Source of the DNA: Candidatus Daviesbacteria bacterium
Lineage (GTDB): Bacteria; Patescibacteriota; Microgenomatia; Daviesbacterales; UBA10151
Direction of reading: 5' to 3'
Length of the DNA: 64,000 bases
Assembly (NCBI GenBank): GCA_016187025.1
Contig: JACPKM010000001.1
Location: forward strand, 43,188 to 107,187
Part shown: positions 1 to 53,911 of the stretch, piece by piece
How the letters are laid out: the number at the start of each line of letters is the position of its first letter
How positions within the stretch are numbered: the first letter of the stretch is position 1
Program-made: the position numbers and the translations under genes
The notes under the pieces: model-generated
Seen by the model: only the letters and a program-made list of their open reading frames with translations
Told to the model about the DNA's origin: nothing
Database searches by the model: none

Positions 1-451
1 CTCTTCCATCAAACTCAAACAAAGCTACTTGCTGATATTTGCCAAGCTCTAACTTTCCATTCCTCACAGGAACAGTCACACTAGGGTGTGAATAAGTTAA
101 AGCCCTGATATGTGAACCAGCATTATAATCCTCATCAACTTCATTACATAACGGATTATCCTGGCACCTATGTAAATAATCAGCAGTTGGGTGTTCCCAT
201 CCGTTAGAAGCTCTATGGGAGCGTTTATCCTCTGGCACACATAATAAAGTATGTCTTAGGATATCCTGCAATAAATTAGGTTCAGCAATCTCATTCCAAA
301 GTACTCCTAAAGTAGTGTGTTTTGTATTAACTACCACAAATCCATCCTCTACTTTAGCTTTTTTTATAGCCTCGTTTATTTGATCTGTAATGTCTTGGAT
401 ATAGGTATGTTTTATGGAGGGGAATTTTATTTCTTTTAGATAAGCTTTCAC
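1..451 (-). CDS. YjbQ/UPF0047 family protein (partial; runs off window start)
   Basis: Minus-strand translation from a GTG at 451 that overlaps the upstream gene's stop gives ...GFVVVNTKHTTLGVLWNEIAEP...AGSHIRALTYSHPSVTVPVRNGKLELGKYQQVALFEFDG, which matches the YjbQ pattern. It has no stop in the window, which is why it is absent from the ORF track. Confidence 0.55.
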   Translation of the reverse strand, partial: MKAYLKEIKFPSIKHTYIQDITDQINEAIKKAKVEDGFVVVNTKHTTLGVLWNEIAEPNLLQDILRHTLLCVPEDKRSHRASNGWEHPTADYLHRCQDNPLCNEVDEDYNAGSHIRALTYSHPSVTVPVRNGKLELGKYQQVALFEFDGR

Positions 452-2700: not shown

Positions 2701-3266
2701 TAAGGATTAAAAAAACCGTGTCTTTTCAGCAGGGGTGTCGCTGCAACAGCCCAGGGAGCATATTTTTTAGGATTTGCTTCTATGTCTTTTAAAAACTCAT
2801 ACTTATCCATCCACTTAATCCCATATCCTACTTCAGGATTAAGTTCAAAATCTCCCACTAGTTCGGCAGTTAGAATCTTATCGTGCTCATTTTCACAAAA
2901 CTCTCCGTATTGGGCAAAATAATTGATACCACCGAAATTTCTTAAATCCTTTATATCATCTGGGTCTATATTATACTCGCGTTTCAGCGACCTCAAAGCA
3001 GCTTCCTCATCAGTTTCATTTGAGCCATCTTCTTTATGTAACTGATGGGTAGAGGCAGTCATATCCCATATATAATCAAAAACTAAATGCTTCCTCTTTT
3101 GTAGTAGTAGCTGTCCTTTGTTGTTATATATAAATATTGAGATTGCAAAATGGTGCCTACCCTTACCAGTATGACCTTCTTCTTTAGAGAAAAACTCTCC
3201 TGTCGGAGTACCGTCTTCATTTGCTCCTTGAATTATTTGATGCGGTTGTCCCATTGATACTTTCAT
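2700..3266 (-). CDS. IDI-type-1-like NUDIX protein (isopentenyl-diphosphate isomerase-like; catalytic Cys not evident)
   Basis: HHFAISIFIYNNKGQLLLQKRK...EAALRSLKREYNI with a C-terminal ...KYAPW resembles type 1 IDI. It sits between ispH and a polyprenyl synthase. The NTCC(S)HP Cys motif is replaced by TASTHQ. Confidence 0.45.
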   Translation of the reverse strand: MKVSMGQPHQIIQGANEDGTPTGEFFSKEEGHTGKGRHHFAISIFIYNNKGQLLLQKRKHLVFDYIWDMTASTHQLHKEDGSNETDEEAALRSLKREYNIDPDDIKDLRNFGGINYFAQYGEFCENEHDKILTAELVGDFELNPEVGYGIKWMDKYEFLKDIEANPKKYAPWAVAATPLLKRHGFFNP

Positions 3267-4234
3267 GTATTCCTATAATCCTCCACTCTAGGCGGAATGT
3301 TAAAATTGACTGGCTCTGGTTTACCAAACCTTAAATCTTCTATCTTATAACCCCCTACTGAGAGTTGTCTCATGAATTTATCAGCATGCATAGGATCTGC
3401 AGAGGCACCTGCAGTAACGGCAACCCTACTTGCTCCTTCAAACATTCCTCTTTGCACCTCTTCTGCTGTCTCAACTAAATAGACCTCTGCACCAGCTGCT
3501 TTACCCATCTTAACTAACTCACTAGTATTTGAACTTATTCTAGATCCAAAAGCAATCATTACCTGAGGTTCTCTAGCCAATACTAACCCTAATGCTCCTT
3601 GTCTGTTTTGAGTAGCAAAGCAGACATCACCCAAGTCCGGTATTCTTATATCTGGTATTTTCTCTCTTAGTCTATCTATCCATGCCAATGCTTTTCCTGT
3701 ATTTAGAGTAGTTTGAGTATCTATAAAATACATTTTTCCTGGGACTGGTACAAAATCCTTAACATCCTCCTCTGTACGAATAGGAGTTATATTATCTGGA
3801 GCTTCCCCTATTACCCCTTTAGGTTCCCTATGTTCCAAATCCTTACATATATATAGAACGTCCCAATCTCTACCTTCTGCTACAGCTATCTCTTTAGCTC
3901 TTTTTACTCGTTCATGAACTTTAGCAACAAGCGGGCAAGTACTATCTATTATCTGTGTTTTTTTGTCACGAAGTAGCCGCCTTTCACTTTCTGATAAACC
4001 ATGAGCACTTATCATAACTCTTGCACCTTCTGGAATATATACCGGATCTTCTACAAAAGTCATACCTCTTGCTTCTAAACTATGCACTACTGGAAAGTTA
4101 TTTACTAAATTACCTAAACCTGTAACAGGACCATCGTTAAGTGCCCTTTTTGCATTATCTATAGACCAAGCAACACCTGCGCAGAATCCTAAAGGGTAAG
4201 CTTTATATGCTATTTTTTGCGTCTCTTCGGACAT
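3263..4234 (-). CDS. ispH: 4-hydroxy-3-methylbut-2-enyl diphosphate reductase IspH/LytB
   Basis: GFCAGV, SAHG, DSTCPLV and ATQNRQ motifs; the three conserved Cys are present. Confidence 0.85.
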   Translation of the reverse strand: MSEETQKIAYKAYPLGFCAGVAWSIDNAKRALNDGPVTGLGNLVNNFPVVHSLEARGMTFVEDPVYIPEGARVMISAHGLSESERRLLRDKKTQIIDSTCPLVAKVHERVKRAKEIAVAEGRDWDVLYICKDLEHREPKGVIGEAPDNITPIRTEEDVKDFVPVPGKMYFIDTQTTLNTGKALAWIDRLREKIPDIRIPDLGDVCFATQNRQGALGLVLAREPQVMIAFGSRISSNTSELVKMGKAAGAEVYLVETAEEVQRGMFEGASRVAVTAGASADPMHADKFMRQLSVGGYKIEDLRFGKPEPVNFNIPPRVEDYRNT

Positions 4235-9925: not shown

Positions 9926-9951
9926 ATTACAACTTGTAAAATAGTCCCGTT

Positions 9952-15498: not shown

Positions 15499-16542
15499 CT
15501 AAAGATAAGTTAAAAATTCATCAAACAAATATCCCCCATCAGTTGGACCTGGGCTTGCTTCAGGATGAAACTGAACTGATAAGAATGGTTTTTTGACATG
15601 TCTTACCCCTTCATTTGTGCCATCATTTAAGTTTATAAACCATTCTTGCCAATTATTCGAAAGAGTTTTGCTACTGATGGCAAAACCATGATTTTGAGAG
15701 GTGATAATAGCCTTTTTTGAAATCAAATCTTTAACTGGCTGATTTTGGCCTCTATGACCAAATTTCAATTTATAGGTATCAGCCCCAGCTGCTAGTCCCA
15801 AAAGCTGACTTCCTAAACATATACCAAAAGTAGGAACATTCTCATCAATTAATTGCCTGATTGTATCAATTGTCTCTTTGGCTTGCTTTGGGTCTCCCGG
15901 ACCATTAGAAATCATGACCCCATCAAAGTTTAAGTTGTTTTTTATAGGGTTAAAGTTCCAGGGAACTACTGTTATTTTAACTTTTCTTTTTAAAAAGCTT
16001 TTTATGATATTTGATTTGGCTCCACAATCTATCAAAATAATATGTTTTTTTCCTTCCCCAAATGTTTGCGGTTTATCTACACTGACAAAAGGCAATACAT
16101 TTTCTTTATTCGGATCATAACTTTCCCCCTTTCCGCTTTCCCCTGACTCAATTCTTCCCAGCATCACTCCCCTTTCCCTTAATTTTCTTACCAAAAATCT
16201 GGTGTCAATATTAAAAAGCCCAGGAATATTATCTTTTTTTAGCCAATCACTTAAAGTTTTTTGACTTTCAAAATGAGATGGGGTGTCAATATAATTTTGT
16301 ACAATTACTCCCTTAACCTGAATTTTTTTAGATTCCCAATACTTTGTATCTGGAATTCCATAATTTCCCACTAAAGGATAAGTTAAAACAAGAATCTGAC
16401 CATAATAAGAAGGGTCGGTCAGGCTTTCCACATAACCCACCATTCCTGTGTTAAAAACCACCTCTCCGGAAATGTTTGTGATAGCCCCAAAAAAATCACC
16501 TTCAAATGTGTTTTGATCTGCTAGTATTAATTTACCTTTCAT
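15499..16542 (-). CDS. carA: carbamoyl-phosphate synthase small subunit (glutamine amidotransferase)
   Basis: CarA N-domain followed by a class I GATase (GICLGSQ...HRG...NHG). Confidence 0.9.
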   Translation of the reverse strand: MKGKLILADQNTFEGDFFGAITNISGEVVFNTGMVGYVESLTDPSYYGQILVLTYPLVGNYGIPDTKYWESKKIQVKGVIVQNYIDTPSHFESQKTLSDWLKKDNIPGLFNIDTRFLVRKLRERGVMLGRIESGESGKGESYDPNKENVLPFVSVDKPQTFGEGKKHIILIDCGAKSNIIKSFLKRKVKITVVPWNFNPIKNNLNFDGVMISNGPGDPKQAKETIDTIRQLIDENVPTFGICLGSQLLGLAAGADTYKLKFGHRGQNQPVKDLISKKAIITSQNHGFAISSKTLSNNWQEWFINLNDGTNEGVRHVKKPFLSVQFHPEASPGPTDGGYLFDEFLTYL

Positions 16543-16550
16543 AATTTTCC

Positions 16551-16576
16551 AAAAAAATACCGCCCCTAAGGCGGTC
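16551..16576 (-). terminator. intrinsic-terminator-like hairpin plus U7 tract, 9 nt upstream of the carA start codon
   Basis: Minus strand GACCGCC-UUAGG-GGCGGU followed by AUUUUUUUGG, then the carA ATG. This is attenuator-like architecture. Confidence 0.45.
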
Positions 16577-16633
16577 TTGCAATTACTTTATAACAAAACC
16601 AGTAATATATTTAAACATGAAATCAAGGGTGAT

Positions 16634-16736
16634 AATGAACTACCCTGCAGCAGAGCTGCGAGGTATCGCAAGCGAAAGTTCTTGTTACCAAGTTGTAACC
16701 GCGCAGTAAACTGCTCGGTATTATGTAACAATAAAG
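16634..16736. ncRNA. conserved structured RNA-like element, copy 1 (unassigned family)
   Basis: AATGAACTACCCTGCAGC...GTAACAATAAAG. It shares its ends, order and helices with 37196-37361. Compensatory changes are seen (UCGC/GCGA versus UCGU/ACGA; GUUAC/GUAAC versus GUUAC/GUGAC). Confidence 0.35.
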
Positions 16737-16794
16737 AAGAAGTACCATTCCGTCAACCCCTTAAATTGAAGGTTGTGTTAAAATATCAGATAGA

Positions 16795-17073
16795 ATGGCT
16801 AAAAATAAAGCAAAGGGGGGAAGCCAAAGTAAACGGTTCCATGAAGAGCTGATAGATAGAATGCTAGCCCTTGCAACCTCCGGTTTCGGACTTGTTGCAG
16901 CCCTTGCCTGGAATGAAACAATCCAGGCTTTTGTCCAGGATTATATCCAAAAATATTTCCCTCAATCATATGGTTTAATCTCAAAACTTTTATATGCCGT
17001 CTTAATAACTATTTTTGCTGTTTTTATTACCTACCAACTATCAAAACTTTCCGCCAAATTCAATAAACCGTAG
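16795..17073 (+). CDS. small membrane protein (hypothetical)
   Basis: 92 aa with two predicted TM segments and an RBS-like GGGGGAAG nearby. Confidence 0.3.
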   Translation: MAKNKAKGGSQSKRFHEELIDRMLALATSGFGLVAALAWNETIQAFVQDYIQKYFPQSYGLISKLLYAVLITIFAVFITYQLSKLSAKFNKP

Positions 17074-35858: not shown

Positions 35859-35950
35859 TTCGTTAACCTTCCCTTTTTGCTTCGCAAAAACGTAGAAGTA
35901 TGGTATTTAGTATAACGTATGCTGGGTATGATTCCTAATCTTAGCTAAAG

Positions 35951-36022
35951 TAGCAGGGATGGGGCTCGAACCCATAACCTCTTCGTTATGAATGAAGTGC
36001 TCCACCATTGAGCTACCCTGCC
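35951..36022 (-). tRNA. tRNA-Met (anticodon CAT), elongator-like
   Basis: Cloverleaf GGCAGGG-TA-GCTC...GAGC-A-CTTCA-TTCATAA-CGAAG-AGGTT-ATGGG-TTCGAGC-CCCAT-CCCTGCT-A; G1-U72, Y11:R24. Confidence 0.8.
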
Positions 36023-36052
36023 TTATCAGTGCGGGTAAATTTTAACATAATT

Positions 36053-36553
36053 TAGGCTGCATATCTAAGGCCATCAATCCACCCTCTAATCTTAGTTAAT
36101 AATTCGCTACTTCTTCGAACCCTTATCCTCAGGACCCCATAGTATTTTTCTGGATTTTCATATTTTTTCAACCAAATAGATTTGTGATAAAAAGGTTTTT
36201 CAAACTGTTCTTTTGGAATTTTTGTGGTTTTCGACCAAAAATCTTCAATTTGTTCTTTACGATACTCATGTGATTCATTAAATTCAGCTCTTAAAATTAA
36301 TTCTTCCCGTTTTATATCAAAAGACCTTGCGAGTCACTTAATAAAAAATTTCACCATCTGGGGATCAGAGTTGCAGAAACCTACTCTACCCTCCTTCAAA
36401 CTCTTAAACCCTTCTGCCCAATAAAGAGATAAACCTGTCAAAAATAGTTCTTTCTCAGTCAGACGAGCTATTTCCAACTTTGCCTTTTTAAAGACAGTAT
36501 TGGTTCTAGTAACTTTCTCCAGATGCTTCTGCTTCGCTAATTTCCGGAGGTGT
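36053..36553 (-). pseudogene. degraded ORF (frameshifted, no start codon) between two tRNA genes
   Basis: Minus-strand conceptual translation ...LEIARLTEKELFLTGLSLYWAEGFKSLKEGRVGFCNSDPQMVKFFIK* then, after a 1-nt shift, LARSFDIKREELILRAEFNESHEYRKEQIEDFW...GWIDGLRYAA*. Possibly a mobile-element (homing-endonuclease-like) ORF remnant. Confidence 0.3.
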
Positions 36554-36748
36554 TTTATATTTACTTTCCTATCTTTTTAAGACTTCTGCCTTTTTTTTCT
36601 TTGCCTTACTGCTTCTTCGTATTCTATTTGCTTTCTCTTCATTGATTAATAGATATATTTCTATTGTTCATCTATTTAATAGAAGATGTCAATCGTGTTT
36701 GACATCTCTTGGTTAGAAGAATAAAATACAAGAGTTCTTTTACATAAC

Positions 36749-37038
36749 GCGGGGAAGTGTAACGGCTGCACGCGAGGCTCGATTTTGGGCTCTCTCATAA
36801 GCAATTATGCTAGATAACCTGGCTCATAACGGTGGAAACTTCTTCAAAAGTAATACCGTGGGAAGTTTCGATAATATCGGAACCCCGTAACGACTAATAT
36901 TCCAGCTACCGGATAACTCGGAACTAAATTGGAATTATACGCCGGGCTCCTCTGATTAGGGGATGATGGTATAGTCTATTCTTTATTTAACTAAAGAGCA
37001 TAATCTCGCAGTAGTAGGTTCGACTCCTACCCCCGCAA
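36749..37038 (+). tRNA. tRNA(CAU) split by a putative group I intron of about 218 nt in the anticodon loop (exons 36749-36780 and 36999-37038)
   Basis: Exon 1 is CGCGGGG-AA-GTGT-AACGGCT-GCAC-G-CGAGG-CT. Exon 2 is CATAA-TCTCG-CAGTA-GTAGG-TTCGACT-CCTAC-CCCCGCA-A. Joined, they form a canonical cloverleaf with C1-A72 as in initiator tRNA. The 5' exon ends in U and the intron ends in G; the intron contains ACGACUAA, which is P7-like. Confidence 0.5.
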
Positions 37039-37195
37039 CACGGTTGTATTTTGTGCATATAAAGCATGCAGTTGGGCTACTATATAGCCCTTTTCGTTAG
37101 GTTCGAACGCCTTTCCTATTATTGGCGCACCAGCCTTCATGTTTTTAACAATTTTAATGTGAGGATGAGACTGTAAACCCAATTTTTTACCCTTT

Positions 37196-37361
37196 AATGA
37201 ACTACCCCGCAGCAAGTCTTCGACTCCGAGGCTCAGACTCGAGGAGCTGACGGGGTATCGTAAACGAAAGTTCTTGTTACACTATTTTGTGACCGCGCAG
37301 TAAGTCTGCGATCCTGAGTCCTCAGACCGAAGGACTGCTCGGTATTTATGTAACAATAAAG
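37196..37361. ncRNA. conserved structured RNA-like element, copy 2 (expanded helices)
   Basis: Same termini (AATGAACTACCC ... GTAACAATAAAG) and helix order as 16634-16736, with stem-loop insertions and compensatory substitutions. Confidence 0.35.
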
Positions 37362-37543
37362 GTAAGCGACCGGATATGACTAAACTATTACCCGACCTGC
37401 TTTATTCAGATATGCGGCTAGAAGGAGAGAAGATTACCAGAAAACAAGCCAGGGATTTATTTAAATAACTACGGACTTAGGAGGTACTTGCCAAATCCGT
37501 TATAATTCGTTATAATCTGTTATAGTTAGATTATTATAAAACT

Positions 37544-38605
37544 ATGGTTAAAAATCGCAAGTTTGAAAAGAGGATAACTCAACTTCCTCCTGAAATATTT
37601 CTTAAAATAGCTCAGATCGATGAGTTAAAAGGTCAATGGACTGCAGGAGCTAATCTAAACCCCCAACTGTTAGGCAGGCTTAAAAGGTCAGTTTTAATTA
37701 CCTCTACTGGTGCTTCTACAAGAATTGAGGGCTCAAGACTTACTGACGACGACGTTGACAAATTAATGCAAGGTATTGCTATCCAAAAGTTTGCTGATAG
37801 GGATAAACAGGAAGTTCAAGGCTATTTTGAACTCCTCAAAATAATTTTTGATTCCTGGGAACATATTATATTTAGTGAAAATTCCATTAAGCACCTACAT
37901 CAGGAGCTCTTAAAGTATGTGGAAAAGGACCAGGATCACAGAGGTAAATATAAATCACAAGATAATAAGGTTGAAATGGTAGATGAGCAAGGTAGAAGAA
38001 TTGGAGTTATCTTTGACACTACTCCGGCCTACTTAACCCCTAAACAGATGCAGGAGTTAGTTGAATGGACTAAATATGCTTTGGAGGCTAAATTGTCTCA
38101 TCCCCTCATTATCGTAGGCAACTTTTTAGTAGAATACTTAAATATTCACCCATTTAAAGACGGAAATGGTAGACTTTCCAGAATTCTAACTAACCTGCTT
38201 TTACTTCAGTCGGGTTATCTATACATGCCTTATATATCTCACGAGAAGTTAGTTGAGGATCAAAAACCACAATACTATCTTGCATTAAGAAAAAGCCAAA
38301 GAACTTTCAAAAAAGGTGCTGGAGATATAGCTCCCTGGCTTGAGTTCTTTCTAGATATAATTTTAGCCCAATCGAAAGAAGCAATAAGTTTAATGGCTGG
38401 AGAGAATGTAGAGGATATTTTATCTAATAAACAAATTGCAGTCTGGCAATACCTACAAAAGAAAGCTGAATCTACACCTAAGGAAATAGCAAAGGAAACT
38501 AAAGTCGCTTATGCAACTGTGCGCCAAACACTCTCAAAACTACTGGATCTAAAGAAAATTGAGAGAGTCGGAATGGGCAGAAGTTCCCGTTATAGGAAAA
38601 TCTAA
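37544..38605 (+). CDS. Fic-family protein with a C-terminal wHTH
   Basis: Fic motif HPFKDGNGRLSR. Confidence 0.8.
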   Translation: MVKNRKFEKRITQLPPEIFLKIAQIDELKGQWTAGANLNPQLLGRLKRSVLITSTGASTRIEGSRLTDDDVDKLMQGIAIQKFADRDKQEVQGYFELLKIIFDSWEHIIFSENSIKHLHQELLKYVEKDQDHRGKYKSQDNKVEMVDEQGRRIGVIFDTTPAYLTPKQMQELVEWTKYALEAKLSHPLIIVGNFLVEYLNIHPFKDGNGRLSRILTNLLLLQSGYLYMPYISHEKLVEDQKPQYYLALRKSQRTFKKGAGDIAPWLEFFLDIILAQSKEAISLMAGENVEDILSNKQIAVWQYLQKKAESTPKEIAKETKVAYATVRQTLSKLLDLKKIERVGMGRSSRYRKI

Positions 38606-38675
38606 GGTTTTAAAACCCTTTTTTAATGTGTGTTAAGTTGTTAACTTTTTGAAGCTAAATTAGATAGGTAAAAGA

Positions 38676-39269
38676 CTAAAGAATTCTCTTGGGTAGATGG
38701 TATATGTATACAGCACTAGAAAAACAGAGTATCGCCATACTAACAAATAAGGTATTGAAGCCAAATTTTGTAACAATAAATCCACCTATCACTGCTCCAA
38801 TGGCAATTGAAAAGTAGTTCATGGCCTCCCAAGCACCCCACTCTGTAGCAGTTTTTCTTCCATCTAAATGTTCAGAGTAGAGAGCATCAAAAGGAGGATT
38901 ATAAATTGCCTCGCCAAAACCTATCAGTACCTGTACAAGCAAAAGAAACCAGATCGAGCTGACTTGAGTATAAAGTAAGAAACCTATTCCCATGATTGCG
39001 TATCCTAGAACAACAATTAGTTTTTTCTGCTCTAACCTATCAGAGTATTTTCCAGATAGCAGTACTGTTATTCCTGCCACTAATGCGAATGTAGCACCAG
39101 CAAAGCTTGCATCAAGTAAATCTCCACCCACCTTCTCAATAAAAAGAGCATAAATTGGCCCCAGCATGGCTCCAGCTATAAGAATCATAGCGTTAGTAGC
39201 TAAAAGAATTCTAAGAGCCTTATTAAAAAACATCCTCTTGATGTGAAATAGGGAAGAGACCCGTTCCAT
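38676..39269 (-). CDS. MFS-transporter-like membrane protein (half-size, possibly truncated)
   Basis: 197 aa with six predicted TM segments resembling an MFS C-terminal half. Confidence 0.4.
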   Translation of the reverse strand: MERVSSLFHIKRMFFNKALRILLATNAMILIAGAMLGPIYALFIEKVGGDLLDASFAGATFALVAGITVLLSGKYSDRLEQKKLIVVLGYAIMGIGFLLYTQVSSIWFLLLVQVLIGFGEAIYNPPFDALYSEHLDGRKTATEWGAWEAMNYFSIAIGAVIGGFIVTKFGFNTLFVSMAILCFSSAVYIYHLPKRIL

Positions 39270-39492
39270 AAAAAATTACCTATATTAACGATATTGCATA
39301 TAATCCGCATTATCAAGCTATAGATATGCTCAAATACATCATTTATGCCGTATAAAGTTGTGTCTCACCAGCCTATCCTCTGTTTAGGATGGCTGTAGAG
39401 GCAATCTTACTGGTAAGCCGATTGATGAATAAGTATATGGTTAACTCAAGGCCTAAGCACCAAAGTGAAGTCAAAGACTTCCTACTCCGTAG

Positions 39493-39558
39493 TAAAAAAT
39501 TCTGCAATTAAATCAACGATTTAATTGGGTGTATTATGTCTTGCAGTCCCCGCAACAC
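39493..39558. repeat. 66-bp direct repeat, copy 1 (att-like)
   Basis: taaaaaattctgcaattaaatcaacgatttaattgggtgtattatgtcttgcagtccccgcaacaca; identical to 42058-42123. It contains a 10-bp hairpin CAATTAAATC/GATTTAATTG and the core CCCCGCAACAC shared with the tRNA(CAU) 3' end. Confidence 0.8.
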
Positions 39559-39612
39559 AGCTAGATTAGGTTGTTATAATAGCCTAATCTCTTAATTAGT
39601 AAATAGGCTAAA

Positions 39613-40383
39613 TTATCCAAAAACAAATTCTTGCCCAAAATCTTTTACTAATTCCGATTTAGATTCTTCATAAATTGATTTTAACCCTCTTTCCAAGTAA
39701 ATTTGTCTTTGTGTGCGAGAATAATCATTCCAATTACCTTCAATTCTGGCAACCTCTGCTTCATATTTCTTAAGTACAGGTATTCCTCCAAGACCTAACC
39801 AACTAGCAATACCATGTTCAGCATATTTTCCATTTCCACCTAACCAACCATAAGGGGTTTTAGCAACGTCAAATCTCGCAGTAATTCTCGGTCTCACCTC
39901 TATATCTGTACCGCTACCAATTCTAATGGTGCGATTCGGGAATTTAGCAATTGCCCCGTCTGTTAAAGATGGATTTAATTCCTGTTCTACTATGCCTGCA
40001 ATTTGCATCAGATTGTCATGGCTTCCAATATAAACTGTTGCTCCAGATTCCCTATTGCCGTAAAAGTATGTTCCTACCATTGATTCAACTTTAAAATACA
40101 ATCCGTTTACATATAAAAACTGTGCAACATCTCTTTCTTTACCTTTCTCAAAGGCAATATGAATCTTCCAACCACGGGATGAGAACTGAGAGAAAGGACT
40201 TTCATCCTCCGTTGTTTGAAAGTGACCTCTAGGCCCCCATCGTTCTTGCCAGGCTTTTTCAAAGGCTTGCCTGCGATTATCTTTATCCTTATTAAAAATT
40301 GTTGATTGTAATAAAGTATCAGGAGGATTTAGACCTGCTTCATTTCTTTCTAAAGAATCATCCACATGTTGATTATATCTCAA
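39613..40383 (-). CDS. hypothetical protein inside the repeat-bounded segment
   Basis: 256 aa; no family recognised. Confidence 0.3.
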   Translation of the reverse strand: MRYNQHVDDSLERNEAGLNPPDTLLQSTIFNKDKDNRRQAFEKAWQERWGPRGHFQTTEDESPFSQFSSRGWKIHIAFEKGKERDVAQFLYVNGLYFKVESMVGTYFYGNRESGATVYIGSHDNLMQIAGIVEQELNPSLTDGAIAKFPNRTIRIGSGTDIEVRPRITARFDVAKTPYGWLGGNGKYAEHGIASWLGLGGIPVLKKYEAEVARIEGNWNDYSRTQRQIYLERGLKSIYEESKSELVKDFGQEFVFG

Positions 40384-40448
40384 AAATTGGAATAAAAAGT
40401 TCTAACTTCATTCCAACCACTTCCTCTAAACAATGGTATAATGGCCAC

Positions 40449-40709
40449 ATGTTAAAATCTCAAAAAGTTTCGGAATATGAATTACCAATTAAAGTAGAAC
40501 CACAAAAAGAGGGCGGTTTTGTGGTTACTTCTCCAGTTTGGGCAGATTGCTACGCTCAAGGCGACAGTGTAGATGAAGCTATATTAGAAATTACTGCCGT
40601 AGCTCAATCTCTAATTGAATTATATAAAGAAGAAGGTAAACATATCCCCCTTAAGTTACAAAAAGAGGTTGACAACCTCACCTCGGTTCCAGTTATAGTA
40701 GCTACATGA
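40449..40709 (+). CDS. hicB: HicB-family antitoxin
   Basis: UPF0150/HicB-like fold sequence, overlapping hicA by 4 nt. The ORF-track start at 40299 is probably too long. Confidence 0.6.
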   Translation: MLKSQKVSEYELPIKVEPQKEGGFVVTSPVWADCYAQGDSVDEAILEITAVAQSLIELYKEEGKHIPLKLQKEVDNLTSVPVIVAT

Positions 40710-40918
40710 AACCTCTAAGCTATCGGATAGTTATCAAAAAAGCACGCAAAGCAGGTTTTGTTTTCCGTAGAAATACTGGCGGTACCCATGAAATCTGGTG
40801 GAATGAAGATAAAAAGAGAACCTGTGTGATACCTCATCATCATGAGATTAAACCAGGTACACTGAAGAGTATTATTAGGCAGATGGATGTAAGTGAGGAT
40901 AATTTTAGAAAATTATAA
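40706..40918 (+). CDS. hicA: HicA-family mRNA interferase toxin
   Basis: 70 aa; LSYRIVIKKARKAGFVFRRNTGGTHEIW is typical of HicA/YcfA. Confidence 0.75.
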   Translation: MKPLSYRIVIKKARKAGFVFRRNTGGTHEIWWNEDKKRTCVIPHHHEIKPGTLKSIIRQMDVSEDNFRKL

Positions 40919-41106
40919 AATAGGTTCTAATAGCCTCCCGCCCCCGCAAAACGAAAGTTTCCTTAAATTTCTCCATTGGTGATGATTAGATTATAATAAG
41001 AGCTATAATCACTTTTGCTAGTATTGAAACAGCCAGACAAATTATTAAAGACCTATATCCTGAAGCCAAAAACGTCAGGTTTATTGAACATGGTTATGAT
41101 AACTTA

Positions 41107-41925
41107 GTGGGACTTGTTGACAACAAATACGCATTAAAGTTTCCTAGAAATCAATATGCCTACCTTAGAGATCAGTATGAAGAGCAAGTTTTATTAGATC
41201 TAAAATCGCTTAATCAGTTATTAATTCCCAAAATATTAGGCAAAGGTAATAACCCACCTTATTTTATTGCTAGTTTTGTTCCTGGTAAGCATTTAAGTGC
41301 AGATGAAATTAGACAATTATCGACAGAACAACAAGAAGATTTAGCTGAAAAAATCGCCAGATTTGCATACGCAATGCATTCAATACTACCAGTAGATCAG
41401 GCTATAGAGCACCGTAGTAAATTAAAACTTGATTCTCTGAAAGGACAACCTTGGGTGATATATTTTGAAGAATCTTTAAAAAAAGTGGCTTTTCCTAATC
41501 CCCGGCAAGATAGGCTAGCTAAAGAATATTATAAAAGGTGGAAATCTTTACATTACGATACCCCTGAGGTAGTTGTACACGATGATATACATAATGAGAA
41601 CTTAATGTTTGAGGGGACTAATTTAATTGGTGTAGTTGATTTTGGAGACACGGATATTGGTCATCCTGAACAGGAATTTAGACAGATGTACCGAATAAAT
41701 GAGACAATTTTAAATTTAGTGATTAAAAATTATGAGCAACTTTCGAATCTCAAACTAAATAAAGAAGCCATTATACTTTTCGCTATACTCCAAGAGCTAG
41801 CAGTATACTCTGAGATGCTAACAAGTACTAAAAAAGATCGCCCCTCATTTTATAGGGCCACAAAAAACCTTCAAAAATGGTTACCCGAGGGTAATTGGGA
41901 AAATGATACTACCCCTTTTTTATAG
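41107..41925 (+). CDS. aminoglycoside/small-molecule phosphotransferase (APH) family kinase
   Basis: Brenner motif VVHDDIHNENLMF and the D-F-G region VDFGDTDIGHPEQEF. The in-frame upstream sequence looks like a genuine APH N-terminus but lacks a canonical start. Confidence 0.7.
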   Translation: MGLVDNKYALKFPRNQYAYLRDQYEEQVLLDLKSLNQLLIPKILGKGNNPPYFIASFVPGKHLSADEIRQLSTEQQEDLAEKIARFAYAMHSILPVDQAIEHRSKLKLDSLKGQPWVIYFEESLKKVAFPNPRQDRLAKEYYKRWKSLHYDTPEVVVHDDIHNENLMFEGTNLIGVVDFGDTDIGHPEQEFRQMYRINETILNLVIKNYEQLSNLKLNKEAIILFAILQELAVYSEMLTSTKKDRPSFYRATKNLQKWLPEGNWENDTTPFL

Positions 41926-42057
41926 TGTTGAATTTGTTGACTTTTGTGCCTAAAAGTTCTTTTTTATATGTGGTGTCCGATTGTCCGAATAGCAGATTTA
42001 AAAAACAGGTTTTAAATATAGGGTAAACTGCATGATTTGTAGCTATTAGGCACTAAA

Positions 42058-42123
42058 TAAAAAATTCTGCAATTAAATCAACGATTTAATTGGGTGTATT
42101 ATGTCTTGCAGTCCCCGCAACAC
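42058..42123. repeat. 66-bp direct repeat, copy 2 (att-like)
   Basis: Identical to 39493-39558. Confidence 0.8.
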
Positions 42124-42124
42124 A

Positions 42125-42478
42125 CTAACGGAAAAAAACTTTCCACCAGCCTAACCAATTAGGCAGTTTTTCTTCTAGATTTTTTCTACTTTCCCCTAAA
42201 ACCTGCTGAATCTTTTCTTCCGGAATAATTACAACAGTCTCCCCCTTTTTCCCCAAACCTAGTTTATTTCTGGCTTGTTCTTCTATAAACTCAGAAGATC
42301 GGACCTGTTGTAACCTTTTTTTAAGTTCTTTGTTTTTAACTTCAAGTTTGTATAACTCTTCTGCTGCCTGACTTAACCGATCAGATGACTTGGTAGCATC
42401 AAAAAGCTGCGCAATAAGGTTTGCAATGATAATTCCGACAATTACTATAACCAGTACTAAACCTATTTTTTTTGTCAT
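42125..42478 (-). CDS. FtsB/DivIC-like septum formation initiator
   Basis: N-terminal TM segment followed by a coiled coil (AEELYKLEVKNKELKKRLQQV). Confidence 0.5.
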   Translation of the reverse strand: MTKKIGLVLVIVIVGIIIANLIAQLFDATKSSDRLSQAAEELYKLEVKNKELKKRLQQVRSSEFIEEQARNKLGLGKKGETVVIIPEEKIQQVLGESRKNLEEKLPNWLGWWKVFFR

Positions 42479-42496
42479 ATTTCCCGCAGGCCATAC

Positions 42497-43402
42497 TTGA
42501 CAAAGATGGCCTATAAATTTACAATATACGCTATGATCAACTTAAAAGATGCTCATCAGCAATTTATAGGCCACTTAAAAGGCAGGTCCCGTGCCACTGC
42601 TACTATCATAGCTTATAGCAAGGATATTGATCAACTGATTTCTGACCTTGAATCCTCAGGTAAGCAAAACCCACAAGATGTGAGCTTAGAAGATTTACAA
42701 ACCTTTATGGAAAAATTGTCCAAAGAAAACTACACCCCCAAATCTATTTCAAGAAAAACAAATTCTACCAAAACCTTTTTTAAGTTTTTAAAATCCTCAG
42801 CTCTCATCACAGAAGATCCGGCATCAGACTTGGAGCATCCTAAGTTTGAAAATAAACCACCAAGGATACTATCAAAGCTAGAATACCGAGCCTTAAGGGA
42901 TGCAGCCAGAGCAGATACCAGAATGTTGGCTGTTATAGAACTACTACTGCAAACCGGTATTAGAATTGGCGAGCTGGCCAAACTTCGTTTGGAGGATCTA
43001 AGCCTGGAAGATTCTTCTGCCACTTTGCATGTTCCCCCATTTGAGGGAACCAATGAAAGAACTATTCCTTTAAATAAACCTGCTGTCGAGGCTTTACAAA
43101 AATACTTGGAAGTAAGGTCTAAAACCCAATCACATTCACTCTTTGTTACCAAAACCGGCAGACCTCTACTTATAAGAAATATCAGAACTGCAATTGACAG
43201 ATATTTTAAAATTGCAGGGATCAAAGGGGCAAAGGTAAATGATTTAAGACACACTTGGGTTGCTCATCAGCTTCAATCAGGTACCTCTTTACTGGTTGTT
43301 TCCAAGCTTGCTGGACATAAAAGACTATCAACCACTGAAAGATATCTTCAATTTCTCCAAAATCATTCCGGCGAGGGAAAAGTTAAACTCGAGGAACTAT
43401 AA
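42497..43402 (+). CDS. tyrosine site-specific recombinase (XerC/XerD-like integrase)
   Basis: C-terminal catalytic region LRHTWVAHQLQSG...HKRLSTTERYL (R-H-R-Y), 301 aa. Confidence 0.8.
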   Translation: MTKMAYKFTIYAMINLKDAHQQFIGHLKGRSRATATIIAYSKDIDQLISDLESSGKQNPQDVSLEDLQTFMEKLSKENYTPKSISRKTNSTKTFFKFLKSSALITEDPASDLEHPKFENKPPRILSKLEYRALRDAARADTRMLAVIELLLQTGIRIGELAKLRLEDLSLEDSSATLHVPPFEGTNERTIPLNKPAVEALQKYLEVRSKTQSHSLFVTKTGRPLLIRNIRTAIDRYFKIAGIKGAKVNDLRHTWVAHQLQSGTSLLVVSKLAGHKRLSTTERYLQFLQNHSGEGKVKLEEL

Positions 43403-53627: not shown

Positions 53628-53911
53628 ATCTTATCTTAATAATTAACATATCTTCAACTGAAAGTCCATTGTCTATTATTTTGAGGACTTGTTCATTTTT
53701 TCTTTAGTACCGGTAAACCAGTTTTTTGCACCTCCATTGCCTCAAATCCCTGAGGTAGCTCAATTGCATTTGAACCCATTTCCCGGGAAAAATAATATAT
53801 AGTTTGTTTTTTACCACTACCCCGCAGGATAACTTCTTTGCTATGCAAATAGTACTTTTGACCTCTTGAATTAGTGAAGTCGTAGGCCATATATACTAAT
53901 TTTCACCTCCT

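Follow-up and report, generated by a model that had tools for sequence, protein, structure and literature searches.

In the window, by which we mean the whole 64,000-nt stretch of Candidatus Daviesbacteria DNA that was analysed, the genes for a glycosyltransferase, an aldolase, Fpg, an AAA ATPase and a DUF5654 protein face carA, carB and a Fic gene. The spacer between the DUF5654 gene and carA holds, in the orientation of carA, a putative promoter, a segment with a second copy elsewhere in the window, a small putative upstream ORF (uORF) and an intrinsic-terminator-like hairpin (Table 1). As described in the initial annotation, which had been made from the letters of the sequence, copy 1 of the segment lies upstream of carA, and a minus-strand hairpin with a U7 tract abuts the start codon: the hairpin (16575-16559) is followed by an A, by seven T (16557-16551) and then by 8 nt before the ATG at 16542. 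Pairwise alignment also bore out the claim that two segments, copy 1 (16633-16736) and copy 2 (37195-37361), share both ends, the same hairpins and near-identical internal blocks. Their common terminal sequences are TAATGAACTACCC at one end and GTAACAATAAAG at the other, and a 27-nt central pattern matches only these two copies within the window, with 0 matches expected by chance. The main difference is two ~30-nt insertions at the hairpin tips of copy 2, the helix-tip expansions that had been noted earlier. A possible third window copy at 53817 was rejected as an 11-nt chance match.

Table 1. Features of the carA upstream region and of the second copy of the element.
Feature	Position in window	Strand	Basis and remarks
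carA (carbamoyl-phosphate synthase small subunit), downstream of copy 1	15499..16542	-	Pfam CPSase_sm_chain and GATase; 100% identical to an NCBI Candidatus Daviesbacteria protein
Intrinsic-terminator-like hairpin, ACCGCC-TTAG-GGGCGGT plus U7	16551..16575	-	Native carA leader, not part of the repeat; kept in L015
Small upstream ORF, MFKYITGFVIK* (putative)	16583..16618	-	Stop 7 nt before the terminator stem; read from sequence
Right end of copy 1: guide GATA (16667-16664), palindrome CCTCGCAGC-TCT-GCTGCAGGG, TAGT, TCAT (16638-16635)	16635..16667	-	L026 homology
Copy 1, miniature element, 96 nt	16635..16730	-	Top strand 5'-TGTTACAT..AGTTCAT-3'; removal leaves sequence collinear with the L015 empty site
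Left-end subterminal imperfect palindrome of copy 1, CCGAGCAG-TTTA-CTGCGCGG	16698..16722	-	Preceded by guide AATA (16722-16719); homologous to the L026 left end
Putative carA promoter: -35 TTGACG, 17 nt, hybrid -10 TATTGT	16728..16756	-	Promoter scan; putative function
TTAT target (transposon-adjacent motif)	16731..16734	-	Immediately 5' of the left end; pairs with left guide AATA under the IS608 rule
Copy 2, 159 nt, with the ends and core of copy 1	37197..37355	-	Alignment; right end 100% identical to L026 over 23 nt

Read on the minus strand, with carets at the element boundaries and brackets around the subterminal hairpins, the full layout of copy 1 is ..CTTTAT ^ TGTTACAT AATA (CCGAGCAG-TTTA-CTGCGCGG) TTACAACTTGGTAACAAGAACTTTCGCTTGC GATA (CCTCGCAGC-TCT-GCTGCAGGG) TAGT TCAT ^ TATC.., in which TCAT is the predicted terminal cleavage motif of the right end. 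The boundary may slide by up to 3 nt within a repeated ATT, and our covariance model (R1) matches copy 1 at 16631-16738. The two main hairpins of each copy are alike and lie in direct orientation (ACCnnGCAG...CTGCnnGGTAT, twice); in copy 1, a second small hairpin and then the core lie between them. One internal mismatch or bulge in each subterminal stem makes these imperfect palindromes, and the distance from the end of the element to the hairpin is longer on the 5' side (12 nt) than on the 3' side (8 nt). Terminal inverted repeats are absent: the ends are GAACTACC... and ...ATGTAAC, so that GAACTACC stands against GTTACATA, the reverse complement of the other end. Both strands of both copies fold with better energy than shuffled sequences (z -2.95 to -3.97).

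The closest relative with a long contig (L015; carA 78% identical) shows the same gene order as the window, and its spacer between DUF5654 and carA has no copy of the element (153 nt, compared with 252 nt in the window). Without positions 16635-16730, the window spacer is 156 nt long and collinear with that of L015, and the junction TTCTTTATTATC that results from the deletion is identical to L015 at 12 of 12 positions; the predicted empty-site sequence of the window's lineage would read ..CTTCTTTATTATCACCC.. The L015 spacer keeps the GGGGTTGAC box, the block TTCATGTT(T/C)AAA and the hairpin with U7 and GGAAAA(A)TTATG. Given this collinearity and the identical junction, the element at carA is a clean insertion in the window's lineage, and the comparison documents it as a recent insertion in a Daviesbacteria genome. 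Since ATT is present at both junctions of copy 1, a TTAT-targeted insertion that leaves no duplication and an insertion with a 3-bp ATT duplication both fit. For copy 2, no empty site was found in L019 or L020, in which the region downstream of the tRNA-fMet is not homologous.

The empty site bears directly on the initial proposal of a riboswitch or attenuator sensor for carAB. L015 retains the hairpin and U7 (ACCGCC-TCCG-GGGCGGT-ATTTTTTT) in the absence of the element, so the terminator is part of carA's own leader, and the element is likewise absent upstream of carA in L016, L022 and L023. More distant relatives have pyrC-pyrB or a different gene ahead of carA, with neither the element nor the hairpin. 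The orthologous empty site therefore largely refutes the riboswitch reading.

Additional copies were sought by two routes. First, a conserved-core scan of one genome per species, whose pattern can detect gene-less copies only, identified a third copy, which is partial and sits at one end of the 2.4-kb contig L001; there the left hairpin occurs in its short form on an otherwise copy-2-like sequence. Second, a covariance model trained on the three close copies identified a fourth, divergent and partly degenerate copy in L015 (16652-16765). It is flanked by a GGDEF gene on one side and a response-regulator gene on the other, at a different locus from carA, and agrees with copy 1 at about half of its aligned positions; across the alignment of all four copies, mean column identity is 58%. 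The initial annotation had raised the prospect of other copies ahead of pyrimidine or arginine genes; the neighbours are instead unrelated, namely tRNA-fMet and Fic for copy 2, the GGDEF and response-regulator genes in L015, and a 284-aa ORF in L001. Across the four copies compared, of which one is partial and one degenerate, TTAT stands 5' of 4/4, and TCAT forms the 3' end in 3/3 with a preserved right end. In the L015 copy the hairpin sequences and spacers have changed, with TTAT^, AATA, GATA and TCAT^ all kept. Neither the window (where the GGDEF-ligase spacer is 9926-9951) nor L016 has the response-regulator gene that lies beside this copy. A replication-strand bias was also considered: the window is uniformly GC-skew negative and both of its copies are co-oriented, but the L015 copy is in the opposite orientation relative to the syntenic backbone, so the copies give no grounds for claiming such a bias.

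Short-read assemblies point to more copies than these four. Logan contigs with the window's exact carA, DUF5654 and Fic genes all end inside the element, the clearest breaks (L009-L012, L014) falling ~30 nt in from its edge, and L017 breaks inside copy 2. As copies 1 and 2 have no 31-mer in common, breaks within both indicate that the community holds more copies of each subtype; read from the contig ends, this would be repeat behaviour in a k=31 assembly graph, which implies additional copies. Other searches were negative: in metagenome contigs the core scan gave only 7 GC-rich chance matches, in viral contigs the core, the left hairpin and the left end all had no match, and blastn against phage and plasmid collections found nothing.

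The decisive similarity came from scanning the right-end motif GCTGCNGGGTAGTTCATT against viral contigs, which identified L026. This contig encodes a 156-aa IS200-like Y1 transposase (ORF 2954-3424; Pfam Y1_Tnp PF01797, E=4e-35), and 14 bases past the stop of the Y1 gene it reads GATA-CCCCGCAGC-TT-GCTGCGGGG-TAGTTCAT. The right end of copy 1, GATA-CCTCGCAGC-TCT-GCTGCAGGG-TAGTTCAT, is 92% identical to this sequence over 36 nt, and that of copy 2 is 100% identical over 23 nt. Upstream of the Y1 gene, the same hairpin recurs as a direct repeat in the L026 left end, AATT-CCCCGCAGC-TT-GCTGCG-TAACAAAC, of which TAACAAAC resembles the left end of the window element (..CTGCGCGG-TTACAAC). The homology shows that the top strand of the window copies is the minus strand; before it fixed the strand, ~16 combinations of junction offset, hairpin foot and strand were available. 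It is also the match to a known IS-end family that the initial annotation had named as grounds for giving up its structured-RNA reading. The L026 element carries tnpA only, with no tnpB, and its viral-classified contig evidently comes from an unrelated host rather than Daviesbacteria (41% GC, restriction-modification methylase, phage-like genes). A scan of 20 window ORFs found no Y1 transposase, TnpB or IscB, and the L026 TnpA had no tblastn match in the window or related loci.

The IMG/VR contigs yielded three related sequences. The complete IS200-type element of L026 spans 2846-3471, and L028 carries a derivative at ~230-340 (minus strand), a 48-nt terminal-only version in which the left part of the left end is fused to the right part of the right end. 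In addition, L025 (1-21) breaks in the same right end as L026. Terminal-only forms like that of L028 have been reported for the palindrome-associated elements (PATEs) of Haloquadratum (PMC3119063).

IS608 provides a rule against which the ends can be read. It is cleaved at TTAC on the left, outside the element, and at TCAA on the right, inside it (PMC3201880, PMC5934647). Its guides, AAAG and GAAT, are the four bases 5' of the hairpins and pair with the cleavage sites as G1:C2, G2:C1 and G4:C4, where the third cleavage-site base is unpaired; the element inserts on the 3' side of its target and duplicates none of it (PMC3201880, PMC5934647). AATA with TTAT and GATA with TCAT make all three of these pairs in the window copies and the L015 copy, also at the position where the ends differ (A:T on one, G:C on the other). 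In L026 and L028, AATT with TTTA conforms as well, and in both contigs the similarity begins right after TTTA, as the guide AATT predicts under the IS608 rule. Because the rule holds for AATA:TTAT, GATA:TCAT and AATT:TTTA, the three pairs covary. The third guide position of the element is T; in IS608 it is an A, which flips into the protein.

Taken with the L026 homology, these pairs make it very probable that the element is a PATE read on the minus strand: a miniature that carries no gene and derives from the IS200 group (IS200/IS605 family). As in the IS200 group and IS608, it has left and right hairpins on one strand, 5' guide tetranucleotides that pair with the cleavage sites, a longer end-to-hairpin distance on the 5' side, and a right end near-identical to that of a tnpA-bearing element (L026); its cleavage sites TTAT and TCAT resemble TTAC and TCAA, with the A at position 3 unpaired in both. 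It differs from IS608 in having no tnpA, a T instead of an A as the third guide base, and shorter spacings (12 and 8 nt rather than 19 and 10 nt). PATEs were first defined in Haloquadratum walsbyi (PMC3119063) and are also known from Geobacillus stearothermophilus (PMC10055086). Like them, the element has no room for a protein-coding gene, lacks terminal inverted repeats, has mutually similar palindromes near its ends with a targeting oligonucleotide of 4-5 nt on their 5' side and a longer end-to-palindrome distance 5' than 3', may lack a target duplication, and has ends homologous to those of an autonomous IS. Compared with known PATEs, the present one has a CPR bacterium (Patescibacteria) as its host and a very small size (96 nt), matching ~32-nt extensions occur in both palindrome loops of one subtype, and no autonomous partner was found among the 20 window ORFs scanned. 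The class is thus already known, and what is new here is an IS200/IS605-type PATE in a CPR bacterium. The fallback reading of the initial annotation, a small mobile RNA, was on the right track, with mobility at the DNA level and not at the RNA level.

The mover is presumably a TnpA acting in trans, and a mobilising enzyme in this genome is assumed. By analogy with IS608, a dimer of the Y1 (HUH) TnpA would bind both subterminal hairpins on the single-stranded top strand, with the tetranucleotide 5' of each hairpin base-pairing with a cleavage site (AATA with TTAT, GATA with TCAT). The element would then leave as a single-stranded circle, whose junction would read ..AGTTCAT^TGTTACAT.., and, following the same model, would re-insert 3' of another TTAT without target duplication.

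At carA, such an insertion appears to have entered TTTAT^TATC, the putative -10 box of the promoter. Insertion after TAT would leave a hybrid -10 box, TATTGT, in which TAT comes from the host and TGT from the left end of the element. L015 has at the same place, with no element, GGGGTTGAC, then 17 nt and TATTAT (TTGACT-17 nt-TATTAT). The carA promoter probably survives the insertion; if so, transcription would start near 16721 and most of the element would be an added 5' stretch of the carA leader. The AT-rich target TTAT naturally overlaps promoter boxes, and the case would represent a single-strand transposon inside the -10 box of the carAB promoter in a small CPR genome.

Two further readings are considered unlikely. 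First, the element could have been co-opted as the 5' end of the carAB mRNA, where it would alter stability or attenuation by the uORF and terminator. Second, the ~32-nt loop inserts of copy 2 could be a separate tiny mobile module that targets the loops of IS200-type hairpins. Small repeats of Haloquadratum that attack PATE palindromes would be an analogue of this module. The extensions, of ~32-34 nt, occupy both subterminal hairpins of copy 2 (37214-37245 and 37301-37334), are palindromic and mutually similar, with 28 identities in 36 alignment columns; none occurs as a free-standing repeat in any sequence compared. Their candidate origins are a concerted change of both ends or a tiny module targeting hairpin loops.

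Exaptation as an RNA in a wider sense, in which the transposon-derived sequence acts as a 5' leader altering carA mRNA stability or translation, as a small RNA, or as an omega-RNA-like guide scaffold for a TnpB or IscB encoded elsewhere, appears quite unlikely. A transcript from the hybrid promoter (TTGACG-17-TATTGT) would begin within the element, so that the mRNA would have the left hairpin at its 5' end, the minus-strand structure is stable (z = -3.5 and -4.0), and PATEs often encode omega RNAs, as reported (PMC10055086). However, the related autonomous element in L026 has tnpA only, the window ORFs scanned include no TnpB or IscB, and no promoter-like site accompanies copy 2. Omega-RNA scaffolds are also longer than 96 nt.

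It is very unlikely that the element belongs to another class of short intergenic repeat whose mobility does not depend on an IS200 TnpA, such as a REP/BIME-like repeat with a RAYT, or a MITE with terminal inverted repeats and a 3-bp ATT duplication. ATT at both junctions would suit the latter, no transposase of any type was seen nearby among the ORFs scanned, and RAYTs also recognise hairpins with a 5' tetranucleotide. Nevertheless, the ends of the element form no terminal inverted repeats (GAACTACC against GTTACATA), and its hairpins are direct, whereas those of REP/BIME systems are alternating or inverted. In L026 the Y1 gene lies between direct repeats of these hairpins, and its left end differs from its right end as in an IS, whereas REP/BIME systems have inverted REPs on either side of a single RAYT gene.

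A cis-regulatory RNA on the minus strand, sensing a pyrimidine- or arginine-related signal to control the terminator ahead of carAB, is extremely improbable: copy 1 does lie between the putative carA promoter and the terminator-like hairpin at the start codon, folds better than shuffled sequences and includes a few pairs that change on both sides once the L015 copy is added, but against these stand the terminator and leader kept in L015 without the element, its absence ahead of carA in the other three loci, the unrelated genes flanking the other copies, the IS200 homology of its end, the absence of any Rfam match, and the loss from the L015 copy of helix P1 and the upper part of hairpin A.

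The pairing data themselves are explained equally well by single-stranded DNA hairpins that a transposase recognises. In the four-copy alignment, 85% of cells pair compared with 81.9% in shuffles, and the 4 pairs that change on both sides all come from the L015 copy; the covariation is weak. One of its compensatory changes, UCGC-AA-GCGA versus UCGU-AA-ACGA, is not a paired position: it would close a 2-nt loop, and ViennaRNA gives 3 bp with a 4-nt loop. In Rfam, neither copy matched a family at the gathering score, and at E<=10 there were only sub-threshold matches driven by the terminator, which carries the weak Trp-leader and GcvB matches; the whole window gave two tRNAs only at the gathering score. 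Coding was rejected because a 91-aa ORF across copy 1 has no Pfam match and copy 2 has stops in every frame, and a concatenated six-frame translation of the element had no match in a protein database. We also rejected attC, dif, retron and DGR readings, as their core motifs are absent and the ORFs scanned include no reverse transcriptase. Recognising the element removes a false riboswitch candidate, and it illustrates how paired end hairpins of the IS200/IS605 family can mimic a structured RNA family, with shared ends, conserved helices and apparent compensatory changes.

What is conserved ahead of carA is the uORF and the terminator, which constitute carA's older leader, independent of the element. 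L015 has a uORF at the same position (MFKIKFILFE*). In the window (16551-16618, minus strand) and L015 (9905-10003), the uORF stop lies 7-10 nt before the stem, and the hairpin with U7 lies 8-9 nt before the ATG. Judging by this arrangement, the leader could act as a translation-coupled attenuator; an attenuator may thus exist ahead of carA in which the repeated element is not involved. The E. coli pyrBI leader is a leader-peptide/terminator attenuator of pyrimidine genes. By analogy, the carA leader would resemble pyrBI-type leaders in its U-rich sequence and in a short uORF whose stop falls shortly before an intrinsic terminator, with the first biosynthetic gene immediately after it. It differs from pyrBI in having no sequence similarity, in a uORF with no obvious Shine-Dalgarno sequence, and in its occurrence in two related genomes only. 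The arrangement is relevant to possible pyrimidine or arginine control. The uORF and terminator were seen only in the two genomes in which carA comes first after the promoter. In the window (15499-17073) and L015, pyrC and pyrB are missing there and carA directly follows the divergent promoter region; in the more distant Daviesbacteria L022 (7460-11053) and L023 (5087-11074), DUF5654 faces a pyrC-pyrB(-pyrB)-carA-carB operon.

The neighbourhood of copy 2 has features of its own. The initiator tRNA-fMet (window 36748-37039, plus strand) is split by a ~219-nt insert in the anticodon loop and is not called by ARAGORN; the uninterrupted tRNA of L020 (8502-8577) has the same sequence as its two halves (36748-36780 and 37000-37039), and the insert has a sub-threshold Rfam match to group I introns (26 bits, E=2.7e-4). 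Suspected LAGLIDADG and Fic remnants near copy 2 found no support. The stretch from sucC to DivIC/XerC (window 35950-42500, L020 8450-10000) is a variable region beside tRNA-Met genes. In the window it comprises 6.3 kb with the split tRNA-fMet, copy 2, Fic, a short MFS-like ORF and an APH kinase, and in L020 it comprises 1.5 kb with a YafQ-type toxin pair. In 3/3 genomes scanned there (the window, L019 and L020), this region has a tRNA-Ile (anticodon UAU) close by.
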